NCBI GenBank assembly: GCA_013151775.1
Contig: JAADHO010000298.1
Span: forward strand, 2,853-66,852
Source: Deltaproteobacteria bacterium
Lineage (GTDB): Bacteria; Myxococcota_A; Polyangia; Polyangiales; Houyiibacteriaceae
DNA: 64,000 bases
Direction of reading: 5' to 3'
Part shown: positions 28,201-35,758 of the stretch, piece after piece
How positions within the stretch are numbered: the stretch's first letter is position 1
How the letters are laid out: each line of letters begins with the position of its first letter
Made by a program: the position numbers and the translations under genes
The notes under the pieces: generated by a model
Seen by the model: the letters and a program-made list of their open reading frames with translations, nothing else
Databases searched by the model: none
What the model was told of the DNA's origin: nothing

Positions 28201-28334
28201 CCTGCGAGTGTAGGGGCAAGGCCGCGGGGTCGCCAGGACGCCGCGCTCGGCCCCGCTCGGCCAGCGACCGACCGGATCTGACGAGCGTCGTACCTCGATT
28301 GCCGCGTGAACGCTGCCTTGCTAGCCTCCTGAAC

Positions 28335-29738
28335 GTGAATGGGGGAACACAAAGAGGGTGGCTCTCGAGGATCGGCTGGCTGTGCCTCGCTCTGACCTGC
28401 GGATGCGGACTCTTAGACTCGTGGCCCGACACGCCCCCCTACTGCTCGACCCATGCGGCGGCTCGGCGCGAGGCTGGCGAACCGGGACCGGGACCGGCGG
28501 AGCTCTGCCGGATCATCGGAGAGCGCCTCTGCGATCAGTGGGCGCGCTGCGGCTGTCAGGATGGCACCGGCGAGATCGTGAGCGAGGGCTGCGTCGCGAA
28601 CGTCGAGTCCGAGTGCGACGACTACTTGGCATCACCAGCGGTCCTCGCTGATCTCGACGCGGGCAGGATGGTGTGGTCCGGCGGCGCGGCCAACCGCTTT
28701 GTGGCCGCGCTGACTTCGGCCACAGCGAGCTGCGAGCCCGCGCACTTGGACGTGTCGAAGGTCACCATCGGGCGGCGACGCGACGGCGCGCGGTGCGACC
28801 CGGTCTCCCCGGTGCTCTCGGAGTGCCTTGATCGAAGCATGTGCCAATCTCTCTTCCGTGGGCCGCCAGGTTACTATTGTCACGCCAGCTCTTGGTCGGT
28901 GCCCTCACTGGTGCCGCTGGGCGAGCGCTGCCGCGGTAACTACGACTGCCAAGCCGACGCTCGCTGCGCACATGTGTGCAGTGCGGGTCCCGACGAAGGC
29001 GTGTGCGCGGAGCGCCTCGCGGTCGGGCAGGCGTGCAGCACGTTAGGCGACTGCCGAAGCGGCCTGTGCGAACCCGAGGTCGGGAGCGGACGCTACGACA
29101 GCGACCCGAGGGGCCGCTGCGTCGAGGCCGGCACGCGAGGACTGGGGGAGAGCTGCAGGATGGACACCGTCTGCGCCAGCGGACTCTGCGAGCGACACCA
29201 CGGCAGCTACGATTCGATCACGGGTGAGGTGATCACCGGCGCGTGCGCTCCGCTTCTGAGCATCGGCTCGGACTGCGACCGCAGCGCCCACTGTGAGAGT
29301 CACGCCTGTGCCGGCTTCCGCTTCGTGGAGCTGAATGAGTGCGAGGGCACAGGAGAGCCCTGCCGTGACACTCACGACTGCGCATGCGTGGGCGGACTGA
29401 TGCTTGGCACCTGCGTCGTGCCTGTCCGCAACGGGACGGCCTGTCGAGACTCCGCCGCGTGTGCGTCTGACTACTGTGATCCGCCGAGTGGCGTGTGCGC
29501 AGATCCAGCACCCGCACCGGCCGACCTCCACCAGCCCTGCGACGAGTCCCTCGGCTGCACGGAGGGGAGGTGCATCAGCGGTCGGTGCACGCTTGGCAAC
29601 GCCCCAGGCGAATCATGCTCCTGGCGGTTCTCGTGCGCCAGCGGGTCGTGCGTGGCGGGGCAGTGTCAGCCGACCGCGTGCGTCGCGTACCTCGCACAGA
29701 CCGCGGGGTGGTTTGGCTGGACGCTGAGACCTCATTGA
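28335..29738 (+). CDS. Cys-rich secreted/lipoprotein with repeated CxxxxxCxSGxC modules
   Basis: The probable start is GTG 28335 (VNGGTQRGWLSRIGWLCLALTCGCG); the track start is 28299. Repeats include CSTLGDCRSGLCEP, CRMDTVCASGLCER, CDRSAHCESHAC, CRDSAACASDYCDP, CDESLGCTEGRCISGRC and CSWRFSCASGSCVAGQC. Confidence 0.7.
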   Translation: MNGGTQRGWLSRIGWLCLALTCGCGLLDSWPDTPPYCSTHAAARREAGEPGPGPAELCRIIGERLCDQWARCGCQDGTGEIVSEGCVANVESECDDYLASPAVLADLDAGRMVWSGGAANRFVAALTSATASCEPAHLDVSKVTIGRRRDGARCDPVSPVLSECLDRSMCQSLFRGPPGYYCHASSWSVPSLVPLGERCRGNYDCQADARCAHVCSAGPDEGVCAERLAVGQACSTLGDCRSGLCEPEVGSGRYDSDPRGRCVEAGTRGLGESCRMDTVCASGLCERHHGSYDSITGEVITGACAPLLSIGSDCDRSAHCESHACAGFRFVELNECEGTGEPCRDTHDCACVGGLMLGTCVVPVRNGTACRDSAACASDYCDPPSGVCADPAPAPADLHQPCDESLGCTEGRCISGRCTLGNAPGESCSWRFSCASGSCVAGQCQPTACVAYLAQTAGWFGWTLRPH

Positions 29739-29779: not shown

Positions 29780-31450
29780 TCAGCGGCGGCTGCGGCGGCG
29801 TAGGCCGAAGAAGATGGCGAGGAAGGGCAGCCAGCTCAGGGCCATGCTGATGCGACTCGGTCGGCTCGCGCGCCCCGGCGCGGGCGAGGCGTCCACGGAG
29901 CAGGCGTAGTAGGTCGGAGGCGGCGCGCTGCTGTAGGCGCTGGCGATCTCGGCGCACTCGTCGCGGGTGTAGCCTGGCGCGCGGTAGAAGTCCGGCGCCG
30001 GGCTCGGCTCCCCCTCCAGGTACTCGTAGGTCTCCGAGAAGGTGCGCTGACCGCCCGCGGGGTAGGAGTTTCCGGGGCAGCAGGCCTGCGCGATGTAGAC
30101 CGTGCGGCGGCGCTCGATCTGCAGCGGGTCGACCTCCGTGTCGTCCGTGGGCACGAGGCGCGAGTCCTCCTTCACCTCGTCGACCCGGCGCGTCAGTCGG
30201 ATGCGCGTGACCCAGCCCTGCTCCAGGCCGAAGGCGCGCACGGCGGGGTCCTCGAAGCTCGCGGGAGACGCGATTTCCACCTCGCCGTCGCCGTCCTCCA
30301 CGGCCATGCGCGTGGGGGCGATCACGAAGGCGTCCGTCTCCACCACGCCACCGCTGGCGCTGTACTGAAGGCGATTCATCACGGGGATGTCGTCGCCGCG
30401 CCAGGTCACGACCAGAGGCGCCAGAGCCACGCGGTCGTTGCCGGGCAGCTCGGGAGCTTGCACGCGCACGGCCAGGAACCACGCGCCCTCCTTCACGTAG
30501 CTGGAGAAGGCGGCCACGTCCTCGTCGTCGTAGGAGAACTCGTTGATGTCGAGCCACTCCGTGAGGGCGTTCAGGTTCGAGGCGTTGAGCACCACGACCT
30601 CGTAGTTCTCGGTCGTGGTGATGCGGTCGACCGCGACGCTGCCGCTGCGCGTCTCCTCCGTCTCCGTGCCTCGCCGCTCGAGCCCGGGATCGTAGTAGGC
30701 GCTCCCCTCGTAGGCTCCGCAGCCCATCATGGCCATGGGCAGCCCGAGCACGGCGTCGAGGGCGTTGCTGGCGTAGTGCGGATCCGAGCATTGGTATCCG
30801 ATGCTGCCATCCTCCACGAAGTCCACCGTCTCCGTGACGTGGCCCTGCACGCTCGCCGCGGCCGCCACGAAGATGTCGTCCACTCCGACGTGCACGTCGG
30901 CGCGAGCGGGCAGGGGCATCACCAGGCCGCTGCGTCCGCCCATGGCGTAGAGGGCGGGTTGGATGACGGTGTGGACGAGGCCACCATAGATCGGATCGGG
31001 GGGCGCACCGTCAGGGCAGAGGGCAGGACCAGGCTCGAAGACGCCGCCATCGATCAGGCTGCGGTGTCCGCCCGCGGCGAAGGCGAGCTCCCTGGCGTCG
31101 AGGGCCTCGCCGACACCTTCCGGGGCGCCGACCTCGAGCTCGAAGGGGGGCTCGTAGCTCGGGCGCGTGCTGTCGTGGGCGTCCTCGACCGGCACCGCGT
31201 AGTCGTAGCCGGCGACCGGGCCGAGATCCAGGCCGCTTCCGAGCCCAGGCTGGTAGACCACGCTGCGGCAGCGGAACCCCACGAGTTGATTCGGCGCCAT
31301 CACGTAGAGGGCCTGTGTCGTCGAGTCGAAGACCACCTCGTGCTCTCCCGACTCCGTAGTCGGTCCGAGCACGCGGCAGACAGCGCGCGCCTTGGGCAGG
31401 GCGACGCCCAAGAGAGCCAATGCGATGGCGACCAACAGAAAACGATTCAC
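29780..31450 (-). CDS. hypothetical secreted protein with C-terminal TM/basic anchor (possibly DUF2330-like)
   Basis: GTG at 31450 is preceded by a strong AGGAGG Shine-Dalgarno. The signal peptide is MNRFLLVAIALALLGVALPKARA followed by VC. The C-terminus is LSWLPFLAIFFGLRRRSRR. The DUF2330 guess is low confidence. Confidence 0.6.
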   Translation of the reverse strand: MNRFLLVAIALALLGVALPKARAVCRVLGPTTESGEHEVVFDSTTQALYVMAPNQLVGFRCRSVVYQPGLGSGLDLGPVAGYDYAVPVEDAHDSTRPSYEPPFELEVGAPEGVGEALDARELAFAAGGHRSLIDGGVFEPGPALCPDGAPPDPIYGGLVHTVIQPALYAMGGRSGLVMPLPARADVHVGVDDIFVAAAASVQGHVTETVDFVEDGSIGYQCSDPHYASNALDAVLGLPMAMMGCGAYEGSAYYDPGLERRGTETEETRSGSVAVDRITTTENYEVVVLNASNLNALTEWLDINEFSYDDEDVAAFSSYVKEGAWFLAVRVQAPELPGNDRVALAPLVVTWRGDDIPVMNRLQYSASGGVVETDAFVIAPTRMAVEDGDGEVEIASPASFEDPAVRAFGLEQGWVTRIRLTRRVDEVKEDSRLVPTDDTEVDPLQIERRRTVYIAQACCPGNSYPAGGQRTFSETYEYLEGEPSPAPDFYRAPGYTRDECAEIASAYSSAPPPTYYACSVDASPAPGRASRPSRISMALSWLPFLAIFFGLRRRSRR

Positions 31451-31725
31451 GCTCCACCTCCTGTGAAAGACAAGTCGATGACCTGGCTATCGCAACGGCC
31501 GTGCCGGTGGAAAAGGCTCGGAAAGTGCCTAGAAGACGGCCTCGGTCGCGACACGCCTCGTGGCTGCGGCACGCTCTGGCACAGAGCGGCGCACAGGCCG
31601 CGAAGCTCGCGTCAGACCCGCTCGTGGTCAGGGAAGAAGCACGGGCCGCGCGCCGTAACTCTGTGCTGCTGCGGCCGGCGCAGTGTTGACGCCCATAGTC
31701 CCAGCAAGCAGGATCCTACGCCGAC

Positions 31726-32331
31726 ATGGCCAAACCAATCATCGTCAACTGGCAGGGCGCGACGTCCAGCTTTCAAATCGCCAAGCTCGATCGCAGCAAG
31801 CTCTATGGCAAGCGGCAGCGCTGGGTGCTCGATCCCGAGGGTGAGCGCTGCGAGCGCGCCGAGCTGATGCGCGACGGCTCGATGTTGATCCGCTCGGGCA
31901 TGACGGCGCAGGGCTACTTCGACGACGCCGGCGTCTGGATCCGCAACGACCAGCTCGTTGGCCTGAGTGCGGCGGGGGAGCCCGTCGAGAAGGTGCCCTC
32001 CACGCTGGGCGCGGAGCAGGCCCTCGAGGGGCCCATCGATCCCTCGGAGGCTCTGGATGTCACCGTGCGCTCGGTCTACATGCTCAGCCCCGAGGAGCTC
32101 GACGATGCGTTGAAGGAGCGCCTCTTGGCCGGCGATATCTTTCGCTGCTCTTTCAACTATCGCGCCGACTTCAACGCCGAGACGGCGATCCTCGTGGCCA
32201 ACGACGACGGCTTCTTCGCCCTGGTGGGCGATCCCCTCGAGACCGCCTGGTGCGAGCTCGCCGTCGAGGCCACCGAGAGCTTCGAAGAGCGCGCGGACGA
32301 CGACGACGACCTCGACTTCGAGATGTTCTAG
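31726..32331 (+). CDS. hypothetical protein with acidic C-terminus; first gene of the ligase operon
   Basis: ATG at 31726, 201 aa. Codon usage is clean. The tail is EERADDDDDLDFEMF. The stop TAG is followed directly by a GGAGG Shine-Dalgarno for the next gene. No motif recognised. Confidence 0.65.
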   Translation: MAKPIIVNWQGATSSFQIAKLDRSKLYGKRQRWVLDPEGERCERAELMRDGSMLIRSGMTAQGYFDDAGVWIRNDQLVGLSAAGEPVEKVPSTLGAEQALEGPIDPSEALDVTVRSVYMLSPEELDDALKERLLAGDIFRCSFNYRADFNAETAILVANDDGFFALVGDPLETAWCELAVEATESFEERADDDDDLDFEMF

Positions 32332-32340
32332 GAGGCAGCG

Positions 32341-33042
32341 ATGCGCAAGATTCACCTGATGAACGAGGCGTCCCGCGACGCCACCGTGGCCTTCGACGGC
32401 GTGCGCGCGCGCGCCAAGCCCGCCCTCGGGCTGCCCGGCGTGGAGCTCTCCTTTCGGCGCTATGTCGCCGCCACCGAGGCGGGGCGTCACGCCGGGCTCG
32501 CGGCCGCACATGGCGACTTGGCGCAGGCTCTGATCGACGGCGACCCCGAGATCGACAAGGAGGTCGTGGGCCGCTTCATCGACGAGACGGCCCCCGTCTA
32601 CCTCGCCGCCTCCGGTGAGGTGCTCCACGTCTCGCCGCGTTTGGTCGACGTGGTCTTCGGTCCCGACGGCGCGGAGCGTGAGCGCAAGGATGCCGTCAAC
32701 ACGCCGGGGAACGTCTCGGACGAGACGCCCGTGCGCTGGACGGGGCGCAAGCTCCCGCGCCGTGACGCCCTCCGCCGCTTCGCCTTCCGCCGCACGCTGG
32801 CGCTGAAACACCTCGACGGCCTCACCCATGATTTTCTCTTCGCCATGGCCGAGCAGCTCGCCAAAGAGGACGTGCTCGTGATGTTGGGCGGCGGCGCCAA
32901 GGGCAAAGAGCCGCTGATCTTTCAGGAGAACGGCACGCCCTACCGCGGCTTCCTCGAGGGTCGCGTCGATGGCGCTCGCTACAAGCTCCTGCTCCACCTC
33001 TCCAACCTCGAGATCCGCGTCCCTGACGCGGCGAAGGCCTGA
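32341..33042 (+). CDS. hypothetical protein; second gene of the ligase operon
   Basis: ATG at 32341 is preceded by taGGAGGcagcg. 233 aa. The stop TGA lies 1 nt before the ligase ATG. No motif recognised. Confidence 0.65.
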   Translation: MRKIHLMNEASRDATVAFDGVRARAKPALGLPGVELSFRRYVAATEAGRHAGLAAAHGDLAQALIDGDPEIDKEVVGRFIDETAPVYLAASGEVLHVSPRLVDVVFGPDGAERERKDAVNTPGNVSDETPVRWTGRKLPRRDALRRFAFRRTLALKHLDGLTHDFLFAMAEQLAKEDVLVMLGGGAKGKEPLIFQENGTPYRGFLEGRVDGARYKLLLHLSNLEIRVPDAAKA

Positions 33043-33043
33043 G

Positions 33044-34504
33044 ATGTCCAAGTTCTACTCCGAAGCGGACGCGCGAGACCTCGGCAAGGGCAAGCAGGCT
33101 CCCAATGGCAGCGTGACGGACGCGGAGCTCGCGGCGCGCCTGCGCGGTTACAAGCGCACGGTGGCGGGGCGCTACCGCGCACTCTTCGAGGCAGACTTCG
33201 AGCGCATCCCCGGTGGGCAGCTCTTGGTCAGCCCGAAGATCGACGGGGAGCTCTGGTTCCTCGTCTTCGACGGGGGCGAGGTCTTCTTGGCGTCGCCGAA
33301 GGGGCGAGTCGTCTTCGGTGACGTGCCCGTGCTCGCCGAAGCCAAGGCCGCGATGGCCCGCGCCCACGAGCGCACCATCGTCGCCGGCGAGCTCTTCGCG
33401 GCCCGCAAGTCGGGGCGCCCGCGTGTGGGGGATCTGGCCGCGGCCATGGGCGGCGAGGCCAAGGCCGAGGTCGCGCGCATGGCCTTCGCGCCTTTCGACC
33501 TGCTCGAGGGTGGGTTCGGAGAAGACGCCGAGCGCCCCGTGACCTACGCCGAGCGCTTGGCCTCGATTCAGAAGCTCTTCGAAGGCGGCAAGCGCGTGCG
33601 TACGGTGCGCACGGAAGAGGTCGAGGGGGGCGCCGCCGTGGCCTCGCTCTTCGAGGAGTGGGTCGCGGGAGGCAAGGGAGAGGGGCTCGTCGTGCGCACG
33701 GCGGACGACGCCTTCGTCTACAAGGTCAAGCCCACCATCGACGTCGACGCCGTGGTCGTCGGCTACACGGAGTCGAGCGAGGGCGACAACAAGGTCGGCT
33801 CCTTCCTGCTCGCCCTGATGCGCGAAGATGGTCAGCTGCAGCTGATCGGCTCCTGCGGCAACATGCCGACCCAGCAGCGCCTCGAGTTCATGCGTCAGGT
33901 GCGCGAGATGCACGTGGACTCGGGCTACCGCCACGCCAACAGCAAGGGCGCCCTCTACCGCTTCATCCGTCCCGAGATCATCCTCGAGGTGAGGCTCACG
34001 GACGTGCAGAGCGAGACCTCTGCGGGCGACCCCATCCGCCGCATGGTGCTCGACTATGTGGACGACGCCTACAAGCCCCTGCGTCAGCTGCCGGGCGTGA
34101 GCATCCTGCATCCCGTGTTCATGCGCGTGCGCGAAGACAAGAGCGTGAACCCGACGGATCTGCGCGTCGCGCAGGTGCTCGAGCGCTGCCTCGTCGACTC
34201 CCTCGACGAACACGCGGAGCCCTTGGACTTGCCGCCGAGCGAGCTGATCCGGCGCGAGGTCTACACCAAGACCACGAAGGGCGCGGTCGCCGTGCGCAAG
34301 CTCGTGCTGTGGAAGACGAACAAGCAGGACGTCGACCCGAGCTACCCTGCCTACGTCGTGCACTTCACGGACTACAGCGCGGGTCGCAAGGATCCCCTGA
34401 AGCGCGAGGTGCGCGTGGCGCCGAGTGAGGAGTTGGCCACGGGCATCGCCGAGGCAATGCTCGAGAAGAACATCAAGAAGGGCTGGGCGCTCGTCGAAGG
34501 CTGA
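33044..34504 (+). CDS. ATP-dependent DNA ligase (NTase + OB core) with WGR-like C-terminal extension
   Basis: Ligase motifs occur in canonical order: I SPKIDGE, III IVAGELF, IIIa FAPFDLL, IV GEGLVVR, V YKVKP, the OB region DAVVVGY..KVGSFLLAL, and VI HPVFMRVREDKS. The last ~110 aa (VAVRKLVLWKTNK..YVVHFTDYSAGRKDPLKREVRVAPSEELATGIAEAMLEKNIKKGW) resemble a WGR domain. Confidence 0.85.
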   Translation: MSKFYSEADARDLGKGKQAPNGSVTDAELAARLRGYKRTVAGRYRALFEADFERIPGGQLLVSPKIDGELWFLVFDGGEVFLASPKGRVVFGDVPVLAEAKAAMARAHERTIVAGELFAARKSGRPRVGDLAAAMGGEAKAEVARMAFAPFDLLEGGFGEDAERPVTYAERLASIQKLFEGGKRVRTVRTEEVEGGAAVASLFEEWVAGGKGEGLVVRTADDAFVYKVKPTIDVDAVVVGYTESSEGDNKVGSFLLALMREDGQLQLIGSCGNMPTQQRLEFMRQVREMHVDSGYRHANSKGALYRFIRPEIILEVRLTDVQSETSAGDPIRRMVLDYVDDAYKPLRQLPGVSILHPVFMRVREDKSVNPTDLRVAQVLERCLVDSLDEHAEPLDLPPSELIRREVYTKTTKGAVAVRKLVLWKTNKQDVDPSYPAYVVHFTDYSAGRKDPLKREVRVAPSEELATGIAEAMLEKNIKKGWALVEG

Positions 34505-34510
34505 GCGCGG

Positions 34511-35758
34511 TTACGGGATATCAGGATCCGAGTCCCAGCCGCGGAAGAGCTCGGGCAGGAAGCCAGCGTAGGGGTAGGGCGCTGGTGTCGGCGCGGGGCG
34601 TAGCCAAGGGAAGGGCTCCGGATCCACGCCCCAGCGGGCGTGGAAGACGTCTCGGAGCAGGCCCTCGGCGCGCTTCGCGTGAGGGGAGAAACCCCAGATG
34701 GCCTCTTGGGAGCAGTCGTCGAGATCCGCGTAGTAGCGCCAGACGAAGAAGCCCGCGAAGAAGCGCTCGGGCAAGAAGGCCTCGAAGAGGGCCGCCATGC
34801 CGCGCGCCTGCTCCTCTTCGTCGACGACCACGTCCTGCATGTCGTCGGGCCAGAGCCAAGGTTCGACCGCGGCGTCGGCGCGGGTCGTGTAGCCTACTTC
34901 GACGAAGAGCACGGGGCGCTCGAGCTCATGGGCCAACTCTCGCAGCGCGGGCACTCGGGAGCGTGCGCCCTCGACGTACTCCGCGTAGCTGGCGCCCTCG
35001 TGATCCGCGAGCGGGTAGAAGGCGTTGACGCCGATGAAGTCGAGCTGCTCCCAGAAGACCACGTCGTCGACCTCGTCCCAGTTGGCGCTGTAGGTGAGCA
35101 GACCGGGGTAGACGGCGCGGATGCTCTGGATGAGCTTTTCCCAGAAGGCGCCGAAGCGGTAGGAGAGGCTCTTCATCTCGACACCGATGGAGAAGGCGTC
35201 GGCGCCAGCGTCCGCGGCGTCTCGCGCCCAGGCGAGCACGAAGTCGGCGTAGCTCGCCTGATAGGCCTGCCAGCCCTCGGGGGAGCCCGGGTCGACGCGC
35301 CCGCGCCAGCCGCCGGTCTCGACCCAGAGGTGGGGGATCAAGAGCACACGCATGCCGCGCGCGTGGGCTTGGGCGATCATCTCACGCACGCCTTGTCGGT
35401 TGTCCGCGTAGGGCGCCTCGAAGTCCATCAACACGCGGGTGTCGTCCAGAGCCCAGAGGCGACCGAAGGGGGTGATGGAGATCCAGTTGACGCCCATGGC
35501 GGCGAGGTGGTCGAGCAGGCGTGCGCTGACCGGCGTGCCATAGCCGCGACCCGGCAGCTGCGACGATTCGATGGGCCCGATGGTCACGCCGCGGATGCCG
35601 CCCTGCGCCAGCTCGGCCCAGGCGTCCGCGCTGCGCAGCGTCTGGGCCGAGGCGCTCAGGGGCAGGGCGAGCCCGAAGACGAGGCTGGCCATCGCGAAGA
35701 GGGCGAGTCGCCCCCAGCCGCGGCCCGCGCAGCTTGCGCTTTGATCAAAGGAGACCAC
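34511..35758 (-). CDS. secreted TIM-barrel glycoside hydrolase-like protein (GH5/GH113-like)
   Basis: The signal peptide is ..GRLALFAMASLVFGLALPLSASA. The pattern VNWISITPF..HARGMRVLLIPHLW..FSIGVEMKS..TYSANWDE..GVNAFYP is typical of (beta/alpha)8 clan GH-A hydrolases (the E in GVEM is a candidate acid/base). The subfamily is not resolved. Confidence 0.6.
   Translation of the reverse strand: MVSFDQSASCAGRGWGRLALFAMASLVFGLALPLSASAQTLRSADAWAELAQGGIRGVTIGPIESSQLPGRGYGTPVSARLLDHLAAMGVNWISITPFGRLWALDDTRVLMDFEAPYADNRQGVREMIAQAHARGMRVLLIPHLWVETGGWRGRVDPGSPEGWQAYQASYADFVLAWARDAADAGADAFSIGVEMKSLSYRFGAFWEKLIQSIRAVYPGLLTYSANWDEVDDVVFWEQLDFIGVNAFYPLADHEGASYAEYVEGARSRVPALRELAHELERPVLFVEVGYTTRADAAVEPWLWPDDMQDVVVDEEEQARGMAALFEAFLPERFFAGFFVWRYYADLDDCSQEAIWGFSPHAKRAEGLLRDVFHARWGVDPEPFPWLRPAPTPAPYPYAGFLPELFRGWDSDPDIP

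Follow-up and report, generated by a model that had tools for sequence, protein, structure and literature searches.

Bacterial non-homologous end joining (NHEJ) pairs a Ku protein with an ATP-dependent ligase, LigD, encoded beside it, and a survey of the pathway (PMC7719229) recognises as a class of its own a 'nonconventional' form, made up of Ku and a ligase-only LigD. A second relevant group is that of the NT-OB_2-WGR ATP-dependent ligases, uncharacterised enzymes of delta-proteobacteria and Planctomycetia for which Williamson & Leiros (2020; PMC7470946) annotate a WGR domain; the passages of that review given over to them make no mention of Ku-like or third partners. Here we describe a three-gene locus, referred to as the triad (genes A, B and C), that lies in a 64-kb stretch of DNA from a deltaproteobacterium of the order Polyangiales (GenBank assembly GCA_013151775.1, contig JAADHO010000298.1; the whole stretch is called the window, and coordinates are counted from its first letter). 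On balance, we think it probable that the triad is a compact chromosomal end-joining/break-sealing module of the bacterial NHEJ type, with a Ku component too diverged to be recognised from its sequence. Its genes are as follows:

31726-32331, + strand: gene A, a 201-aa acidic accessory protein (isoelectric point, pI, 4.2)
32341-33042, + strand: gene B, a 233-aa protein of predicted Ku fold, presumed to be a DNA-end-binding ring subunit
33044-34504, + strand: gene C, a 486-aa ATP-dependent DNA ligase, with a nucleotidyltransferase and OB core at residues ~50-370 and a C-terminal extension

As in the Ku + LigD systems and their variants (PMC7719229), a predicted Ku-fold protein is encoded beside an ATP-dependent ligase, and the minimal unit is B plus C. 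The triad differs in that B is missed by Ku profiles, in that C falls far below the LigD cut-offs and is without polymerase (POL) or phosphoesterase (PE) domains, and in that it adds a WGR-like domain to the ligase and a third conserved gene, A. With the NT-OB_2-WGR ligases, as presented in the review passages (PMC7470946), C has in common a similar set of taxa and the joining of a minimal catalytic core to a WGR domain; those enzymes carry OB_2 and a Pfam WGR domain, whereas the C family has a PF04679 OB domain, and no Pfam WGR match was found in the window ligase or its tail, nor in the precomputed annotations of the listed homologues.

We found no description of the A-B-C triad in the literature searched. 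Its kind is a known one, that of Ku plus ligase, including the 'nonconventional' Ku with ligase-only LigD (PMC7719229); what is new is a Ku-fold protein undetectable by sequence, the WGR-like tail of the ligases of the C family, and a third protein that is near-universally linked to the other two. A preliminary description, made from the letters of the window, had framed the locus as a possible novel system; given the predicted Ku fold of B, it is better regarded as a divergent Ku + ligase (NHEJ-type) module than as something categorically new.

Conservation and distribution of the triad

Scanning a single genome from each species yielded 70 loci with a relative of the ligase, at which A and B were placed by tblastn and extraction of open reading frames (ORFs). 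With six contigs too short, 64 of these loci are informative, and the arrangements are distributed as follows:

A-B-C collinear and adjacent: 57 loci
B-C, with A not nearby: 4 loci (L040, L042, L044, L048)
A displaced by a few kb: 2 loci (L021, L056)
deletion relic: 1 locus (L068)
contig too short to tell: 6 loci

Gene B adjoins the ligase, immediately upstream, in 63/64 informative loci, and the full collinear and adjacent set (57/64) extends over at least five phyla, with an A-B spacer of 2-30 nt in 49 of the 54 loci where it was measured (median ~14 nt). This linkage is far beyond chance, and the co-conservation of the two upstream genes with the ligase, which the preliminary description had put forward as a check, is borne out. 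The four loci with B and C only indicate that the minimal pair is Ku-like protein plus ligase, as in two-component bacterial NHEJ; such a pair could serve as a compact end-joining tool.

Carriers are found in Myxococcota (Nannocystales, Polyangiales and others), Thermoanaerobaculia/Acidobacteriota, Burkholderiales and Actinomycetota, together with one metagenome-assembled genome (MAG) each from Planctomycetaceae and Nitrospinaceae; the window itself belongs to a Deltaproteobacteria/Myxococcota MAG. Two of them are in culture, Paraliomyxa miuraensis SMH-27-4 (L037) and the Burkholderiales isolate Limnohabitans sp. 2KL-1 (L055), which makes the end-joining idea directly testable. In a large protein collection each of the A, B and C families comprises around a thousand clusters at 90% identity, whose names are 'hypothetical protein' throughout or, in the C family, 'ATP-dependent DNA ligase'. 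When neighbouring ORFs were clustered all against all, no fourth conserved gene emerged; the next commonest neighbour is a dehydrogenase, whose recurrence in 11 loci we attribute to lineage synteny.

At the one locus classed as a deletion relic, a 181-aa ORF (L068:5800-6345) joins residues 1-81 of A to residues 340-484 of the ligase, without B, and looks like the remains of a deleted triad; the ORF directly after this fusion (L068:6326-8182) has a start resembling that of the NAD-dependent ligase LigA. A DNA-methyltransferase-like ORF with an SPPY motif sits just downstream of the ligase at L040:8147-10249, and recurs in L024, L026, L042, L044 and L047 (Polyangiales/Sandaracinus-like), some of these being loci without A nearby.

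A predicted Ku fold for gene B

The AlphaFold2 model of gene B (97 sequences, monomer) has a mean predicted local distance difference test score (pLDDT) of 77.8, with 10-residue blocks over residues 1-20 and 121-220 mostly >90 and low values at ~30-110, the pattern to be expected if these are arms that become ordered on dimerisation or DNA binding. Comparison with the PDB by Foldseek returned 51 matches at E<=1e-3, of which the top 50 are all Ku (E ~1e-5, prob 1.0, 230-250 aligned columns), amongst them human Ku80 in many NHEJ complexes and the Ku of Mycobacterium tuberculosis (9i91, 9ig8, 8v53). In the independent viral library BFVD, the sole confident match is 'Ku protein [Mycobacterium phage Dylan]'. 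We therefore predict with good confidence that gene B has a Ku fold; the statement in the preliminary description that the ligase lies outside any Ku/LigD context was wrong.

Sequence comparison is silent by contrast: gene B has no match in Pfam, NCBIfam, PADLOC or PHROGs, and its profile has none amongst PDB sequences. For comparison with Ku we used a profile of 51 sequences, comprising the verified Ku proteins of M. tuberculosis and B. subtilis and 49 metagenomic and viral Ku. HMM (hidden Markov model)-versus-sequence scores between the A, B and Ku families are at noise level, with consistent registers; the best local registers fall on equivalent elements, setting FAFRRT..helix..VLVML of B with FDRSYFL..helix..MAIVH of Ku, and, by eye, the C-terminal HLSNLE(L/I)(K/R) of B resembles YADEVR of Ku. 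Gene B is a protein of predicted Ku fold that fails the sequence test of the Ku family, and it shows, in 63/64 informative loci, a genomic association with an ATP-dependent DNA ligase, as Ku does.

A Ku-fold protein, in other words, can hide below sequence detection. Surveys that rely on Ku/LigD profiles, such as that made with hmmsearch at E<=1e-4 (PMC7719229), would not detect B and could miss the module in the lineages that carry it, namely many Myxococcota and some Acidobacteriota, Burkholderiales and Actinomycetota.

The ligase core of gene C

Gene C scores above the Pfam cut-offs for both DNA_ligase_A_M (PF01068) and DNA_ligase_A_C (PF04679), and the following nucleotidyltransferase motifs can be placed in it:

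33236-33250, + strand: motif I, KIDGE, with K65 the predicted adenylation lysine
33680-33697, + strand: motif IV, EGLVVR
33719-33733, + strand: motif V, YKVKP
34124-34144, + strand: motif VI, RVREDKS

An alignment of 14 sequences shows no change at the key positions of motifs I, III, IIIa, IV, V and VI (in the motif I region these are S63, P64, K65, D67 and G68), and this, with the Pfam matches, confirms the complete ATP-dependent DNA ligase with motifs I-VI first read from the letters; judged by its motifs, the enzyme should be catalytically competent. A profile search of the PDB matched archaeal and eukaryotic ATP ligases, all of them DNA ligases. Of the NCBIfam models, C comes nearest to that of the NHEJ ligase domain (TIGR02779; 60 bits, cut-off 228); it falls short of this cut-off and of that of the LigD model (TIGR02776; 48 bits, cut-off 373). 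No primase-polymerase or phosphoesterase domain was matched in A, B or C (Pfam, NCBIfam); the substrates of C would then be clean ends, unless unlinked enzymes help.

Ahead of motif I, residues 1-50 (33044-33193) make up a basic (pI 9.9) and highly conserved segment, with G14, G16, G22, Y36, K37, R38 and Y44 invariant and no counterpart in the Pfam ligase models; it could make additional contacts with DNA or bind a partner. One member of the family, P0116 (L053:4912-6786, from the Planctomycetaceae MAG), carries a ~140-aa TIR insertion (PF13676, PF08937) between motifs I and III as well as a Lys-rich C-terminal extension, and may be an NAD-linked or conflict-related variant.

A predicted WGR-like domain in the ligase tail

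The ~110-aa tail of the ligase (residues 375-486) is among its best conserved parts, with many invariant Arg/Lys in the 14-sequence alignment. It contains one predicted domain:

34241-34495, + strand: WGR-like domain of gene C (residues 400-484; four strands, a helix and one short strand), preceded by a ~25-residue linker from 34166

An AlphaFold2 model of residues 364-486 (60 aligned sequences) has a mean pLDDT of 89.7, and in a Foldseek search of the PDB it finds WGR domains at ranks 1-5, 8 and 14 (prob 0.96-1.00, TM ~0.5), those of PARP3 (2eoc) and PARP2 (6f5f, 6f1k, 9zq9, 9zqb, 6usj, 6x0l). No unrelated match rises above prob 0.6, and the PARP2/3 WGR domains are the sole confident ones; a WGR fold is predicted for the tail on this basis. 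Sequence comparison does not follow suit, in that Pfam has no match to the tail alone at E<=10, WGR (PF05406) included, and hhalign against verified PARP1-3 WGR sequences is not significant (P = 0.09, reached by 9/100 column shuffles), even though it recovers the register proposed in the preliminary description, with EVRVAPSEELATGIAEAMLEKNIKKGW aligned to a 27-residue stretch of the PARP WGR. The resemblance to WGR claimed there holds, then, for the fold and not for the sequence; since there is no significant sequence similarity and the W-G-R signature does not seem to be retained, we refer to the tail as a WGR-like fold and not as a member of the Pfam family.

Set beside the WGR domains of PARP1/2/3 (PDB 2eoc, 6f5f, 6f1k, 6x0l), the tail has in common a topology of a sheet followed by a helix that ends in a (K)KGW / (G)NAW-type turn; in place of W-G-R it appears to have T-D-Y-S-x-G-R-K, without significant sequence similarity, and it is fused to a ligase where the PARP domain is fused to an ADP-ribosyltransferase. 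Its fold and many invariant Arg/Lys lead us to suppose that the tail would bind DNA breaks or 5'-phosphate ends. The triad would join Ku and WGR, modules that otherwise meet only in eukaryotic break repair, and its ligase would carry a WGR-like break sensor in place of the usual polymerase and nuclease domains.

In a single Myxococcota lineage, an ADP-ribosylglycohydrolase gene (L157:3355-4224) and a Macro-domain gene (L157:17226-17744) lie <10 kb from the triad, which is intriguing given the WGR/PARP theme.

Gene A, an acidic partner

Gene A is acidic (pI 4.2; the core alone, 4.4), and its product ends in ...ERADDDDDLDFEMF, the final part of which is a candidate docking peptide:

32296-32328, + strand: acidic C-terminal tip of gene A, DDDDDLDFEMF, putatively a docking peptide

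In the form ...DD(D/E)LDFEMF this tip, which closes the C-terminus of A, hardly varies among 54 loci from several phyla. Single-stranded DNA-binding protein (SSB) recruits partners through its C-terminal tip, DFDDDIPF, and QADMF is a clamp-binding motif; like SSB tips and beta-clamp-binding motifs, the tip of A is an acidic run ending in hydrophobic/aromatic residues, whereas Pfam and PDB profile searches of A turned up neither an OB fold nor homology to SSB. Eukaryotic Ku70/Ku80, whose accessory factors XLF, PAXX and APLF dock by C-terminal peptides, offers a further parallel, in that there too a third protein has a docking-like C-terminal peptide and, moreover, B matches Ku80; LDFEMF is acidic, unlike known Ku-binding motifs, and the likeness extends to a possible second Ku-like paralogue in A, with weak statistics.

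An exhaustive profile search (E<=1e-3) puts the A family at 799 representatives at 50% identity. Gene A itself has no match in Pfam, NCBIfam, PADLOC or PHROGs, and Pfam applied to 111 diverse homologues gave scattered noise only, with no Ku. Nor were there informative domain fusions amongst the longer proteins of the family, none having a Pfam domain bar one probable gene-call merge. Against the PDB, A profiles gave short, noise-level matches only, to a head-closure protein, KOW/uL24 and Sso7d (small SH3-like barrels).

The profile built from those 111 members can be aligned with Ku in collinear order, across 124 columns (A 13-146, Ku 8-145), weakly so (P 0.026, 6/150 column shuffles; score 20.9 vs 17.9 for unrelated control profiles), and the alignment includes SSFQIAKLDRSKLYG with SIAFGLVNVPVKVYS and VRSVYMLSPEE with FDRSYFLEPDS. 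The comparison of the A and B profiles is likewise weak, its score being reached by 1/150 column shuffles; taken together, the profile-profile P values of A with Ku and of A with B range over 0.02-0.09. From these alignments, A may be a second, shorter Ku-like paralogue.

Two proteins, P0486 and P0503, have divergent A-like domains after a ~100-aa helical N-terminal domain that, by eye, resembles the integrase SAM-like core-binding (DNA-binding) domain, with Pfam silent.

A proposed model for end joining by the triad

Synthesising these observations, we propose the following model. Gene B, if its fold is a guide, would form a dimer, a Ku-like ring threaded onto a DNA end, and would there recruit or position C, the ligase whose gene nearly always lies next to its own. 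The ligase has a complete adenylyltransferase + OB core and lacks both the N-terminal DNA-binding domain that larger ligases have and the polymerase/phosphoesterase domains of LigD; its WGR-like domain might stand in for the DNA-binding domain, gripping the 5'-phosphorylated terminus and helping to bridge two ends, by analogy with PARP2/3, such that C could seal clean or compatible breaks, presumably double-strand breaks in preference to nicks. The C-terminal ...LDFEMF of A would most likely dock on B, on C or on a host hub (SSB, sliding clamp), and so assemble or regulate the complex.

A number of points weigh against this model. For B, the TM-scores with Ku are just 0.41-0.48, and the structural model, a single chain whose confidence is low at residues 30-110, does not extend to a closed ring; Pfam Ku (PF02735) gives no match at E<=1, hhalign of B against the 51-sequence Ku profile is not significant (P = 0.33), and a Ku HMM scores <=2.3 bits on the 97 B homologues, no better than on shuffled sequences. 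For the tail of C, the Foldseek E values against WGR are modest (0.03-0.4), and the W-G-R motif is probably not conserved, the topologically equivalent strand, placed by eye, being HFTDYSAGRK. Gene A is strongly acidic, and its only PDB profile matches are those, at noise level, to small SH3-like barrels. Lastly, no polymerase, nuclease or phosphoesterase is linked to the triad, which leaves the processing of dirty ends unexplained.

An elaborated version, which we consider unlikely, would have A and B as two diverged Ku paralogues whose heterodimer forms the ring, the bacterial equivalent of Ku70/Ku80, with the acidic peptide of A recruiting or gating the WGR-bearing ligase. Were this true, the triad would unite a Ku ring and a PARP-type break sensor in a prokaryotic end-joining machine of three proteins, one missed by all sequence-based NHEJ surveys; NHEJ would then have a wider and more varied presence in bacteria than has been supposed, and Ku and WGR would have been partners since before eukaryotes arose.

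We also think it unlikely that the module seals nicks or single-strand breaks, in the manner of LigC-like base-excision or ribonucleotide repair, with the WGR-like domain sensing nicks and B acting as a DNA-binding cofactor. The WGR domains of PARP1-3 recognise nicks as well as ends (judging from the titles of PDB entries, for example that of a nucleosome with a single-strand break), ligase C has no end-processing domains, and the arms of B that would form a ring are not confidently modelled, all of which would suit such a role; the Ku fold, however, is adapted specifically to free duplex ends, the match of B to Ku takes in the entire protein (~230-250 aligned columns), and the obligate pairing of B with C mirrors that of Ku with LigD.

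Genomic setting and a role in defence

The preliminary description had also raised an anti-phage or counter-defence role. PADLOC-DB 2.0 has no match for A, B or C at E<=1; relatives of the ligase are absent from 72,556 plasmids and 50,697 phages, the two weak ligase matches there being unrelated, and relatives of the ligase and of B are absent from 2.9 million viral contigs. The G+C of the triad region is host-like, with no composition anomaly, and its neighbours in the window, which also include a CarboxypepD_reg protein, are these:

28299-29738, + strand: gene for a Cys-rich protein, with no Pfam match and no link to DNA metabolism
29780-31450, - strand: gene for a DUF2330 protein, flanking the triad, with no link to DNA metabolism
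34511-35758, - strand: gene for a GH113 glycoside hydrolase, flanking the triad, with no link to DNA metabolism

In another lineage the triad sits among metabolic and regulatory genes of an ordinary kind. No canonical Ku is encoded in the window, and no tRNA or Rfam match was found over its 64 kb.

An immune or conflict system, directed against phages or plasmids or protecting host DNA from nucleases through end binding and ligation, strikes us as improbable on this evidence. The distribution of the triad is patchy over distant phyla, which suggests horizontal transfer, the cassette is self-contained in variable contexts, and one lineage has the TIR domain inside its ligase (P0116 / L053); it is the cross-phylum distribution and the TIR-inserted ligase that leave a conflict role with some small probability. 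Set against this, there are no defence neighbours, those seen being housekeeping or envelope genes and not defence islands, and the family is broadly retained in Myxococcota at 50-70% identity, as if vertically inherited. The lack of PADLOC matches and of plasmid, phage or viral copies, along with the ordinary neighbours, favours a chromosomal repair role over a phage-borne or defence one, and the role in defence raised at the outset is not upheld.

RNA binding has been proposed for WGR domains, and Ku is able to bind hairpins of RNA. Even so, we give very little credence to a module that repairs RNA, or that protects or seals other nucleic-acid ends (such as those of structured RNA, or of intermediates in the replication of a particular element), as to the weak, sub-threshold RNA_ligase match in C (PF09414, E 4e-4, 20.9 bits vs a cut-off of 27) must be opposed an OB domain of DNA-ligase type (PF04679, above cut-off), PDB relatives that are all DNA ligases, and the lack of a linked kinase-phosphatase, Hen1 or RtcB.

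Junctions and candidate promoter of the operon

The three genes lie on the + strand as a closely spaced operon, with all the junctions, coordinates and hexamers of the preliminary description matching the sequence. At the A/B junction the stop codon TAG (32329-32331) overlaps an AGGAGG, and the ATG of gene B follows 9 nt on, at 32341; at the B/C junction, TGA-g-ATG (33040-33046), the ATG of the ligase is at 33044. Two candidate control elements can be read from the letters:

31686-31714, + strand: candidate sigma70-type promoter, TTGACG-N17-CAGGAT, with a putative start site that would leave a leader of ~5 nt
32330-32335, + strand: putative Shine-Dalgarno sequence of gene B, AGGAGG, overlapping the gene A stop

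The hexamers TTGACG (31686-31691) and CAGGAT (31709-31714) are 17 nt apart, the latter ending 11 nt 5' of the gene A ATG at 31726, before which we see no Shine-Dalgarno sequence. A generic promoter scan did not call this site. In the nearest relatives (L001, L004, L005 and L011), TTGACG-N17-(G/C)A(C/G)GAT stands at an equal distance from the gene A ATG, the conserved promoter-like hexamers lying 11-13 nt 5' of the start in these and in the window, and L003 and L006 have variants that roughly match. This recurrence supports a real sigma70-type promoter with a very short leader in the clade of the window, so that the near-leaderless promoter proposed at first is plausible even with the generic scan silent, and it implies that translation of gene A there would be near-leaderless.

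Control through the SOS response by a LexA box was considered and rejected, as no palindrome upstream of A is common to the loci, only the hexamers of the nearest clade being held in common. At more distant loci, a GGAGG ahead of the gene A ATG takes the place of the near-leaderless arrangement.

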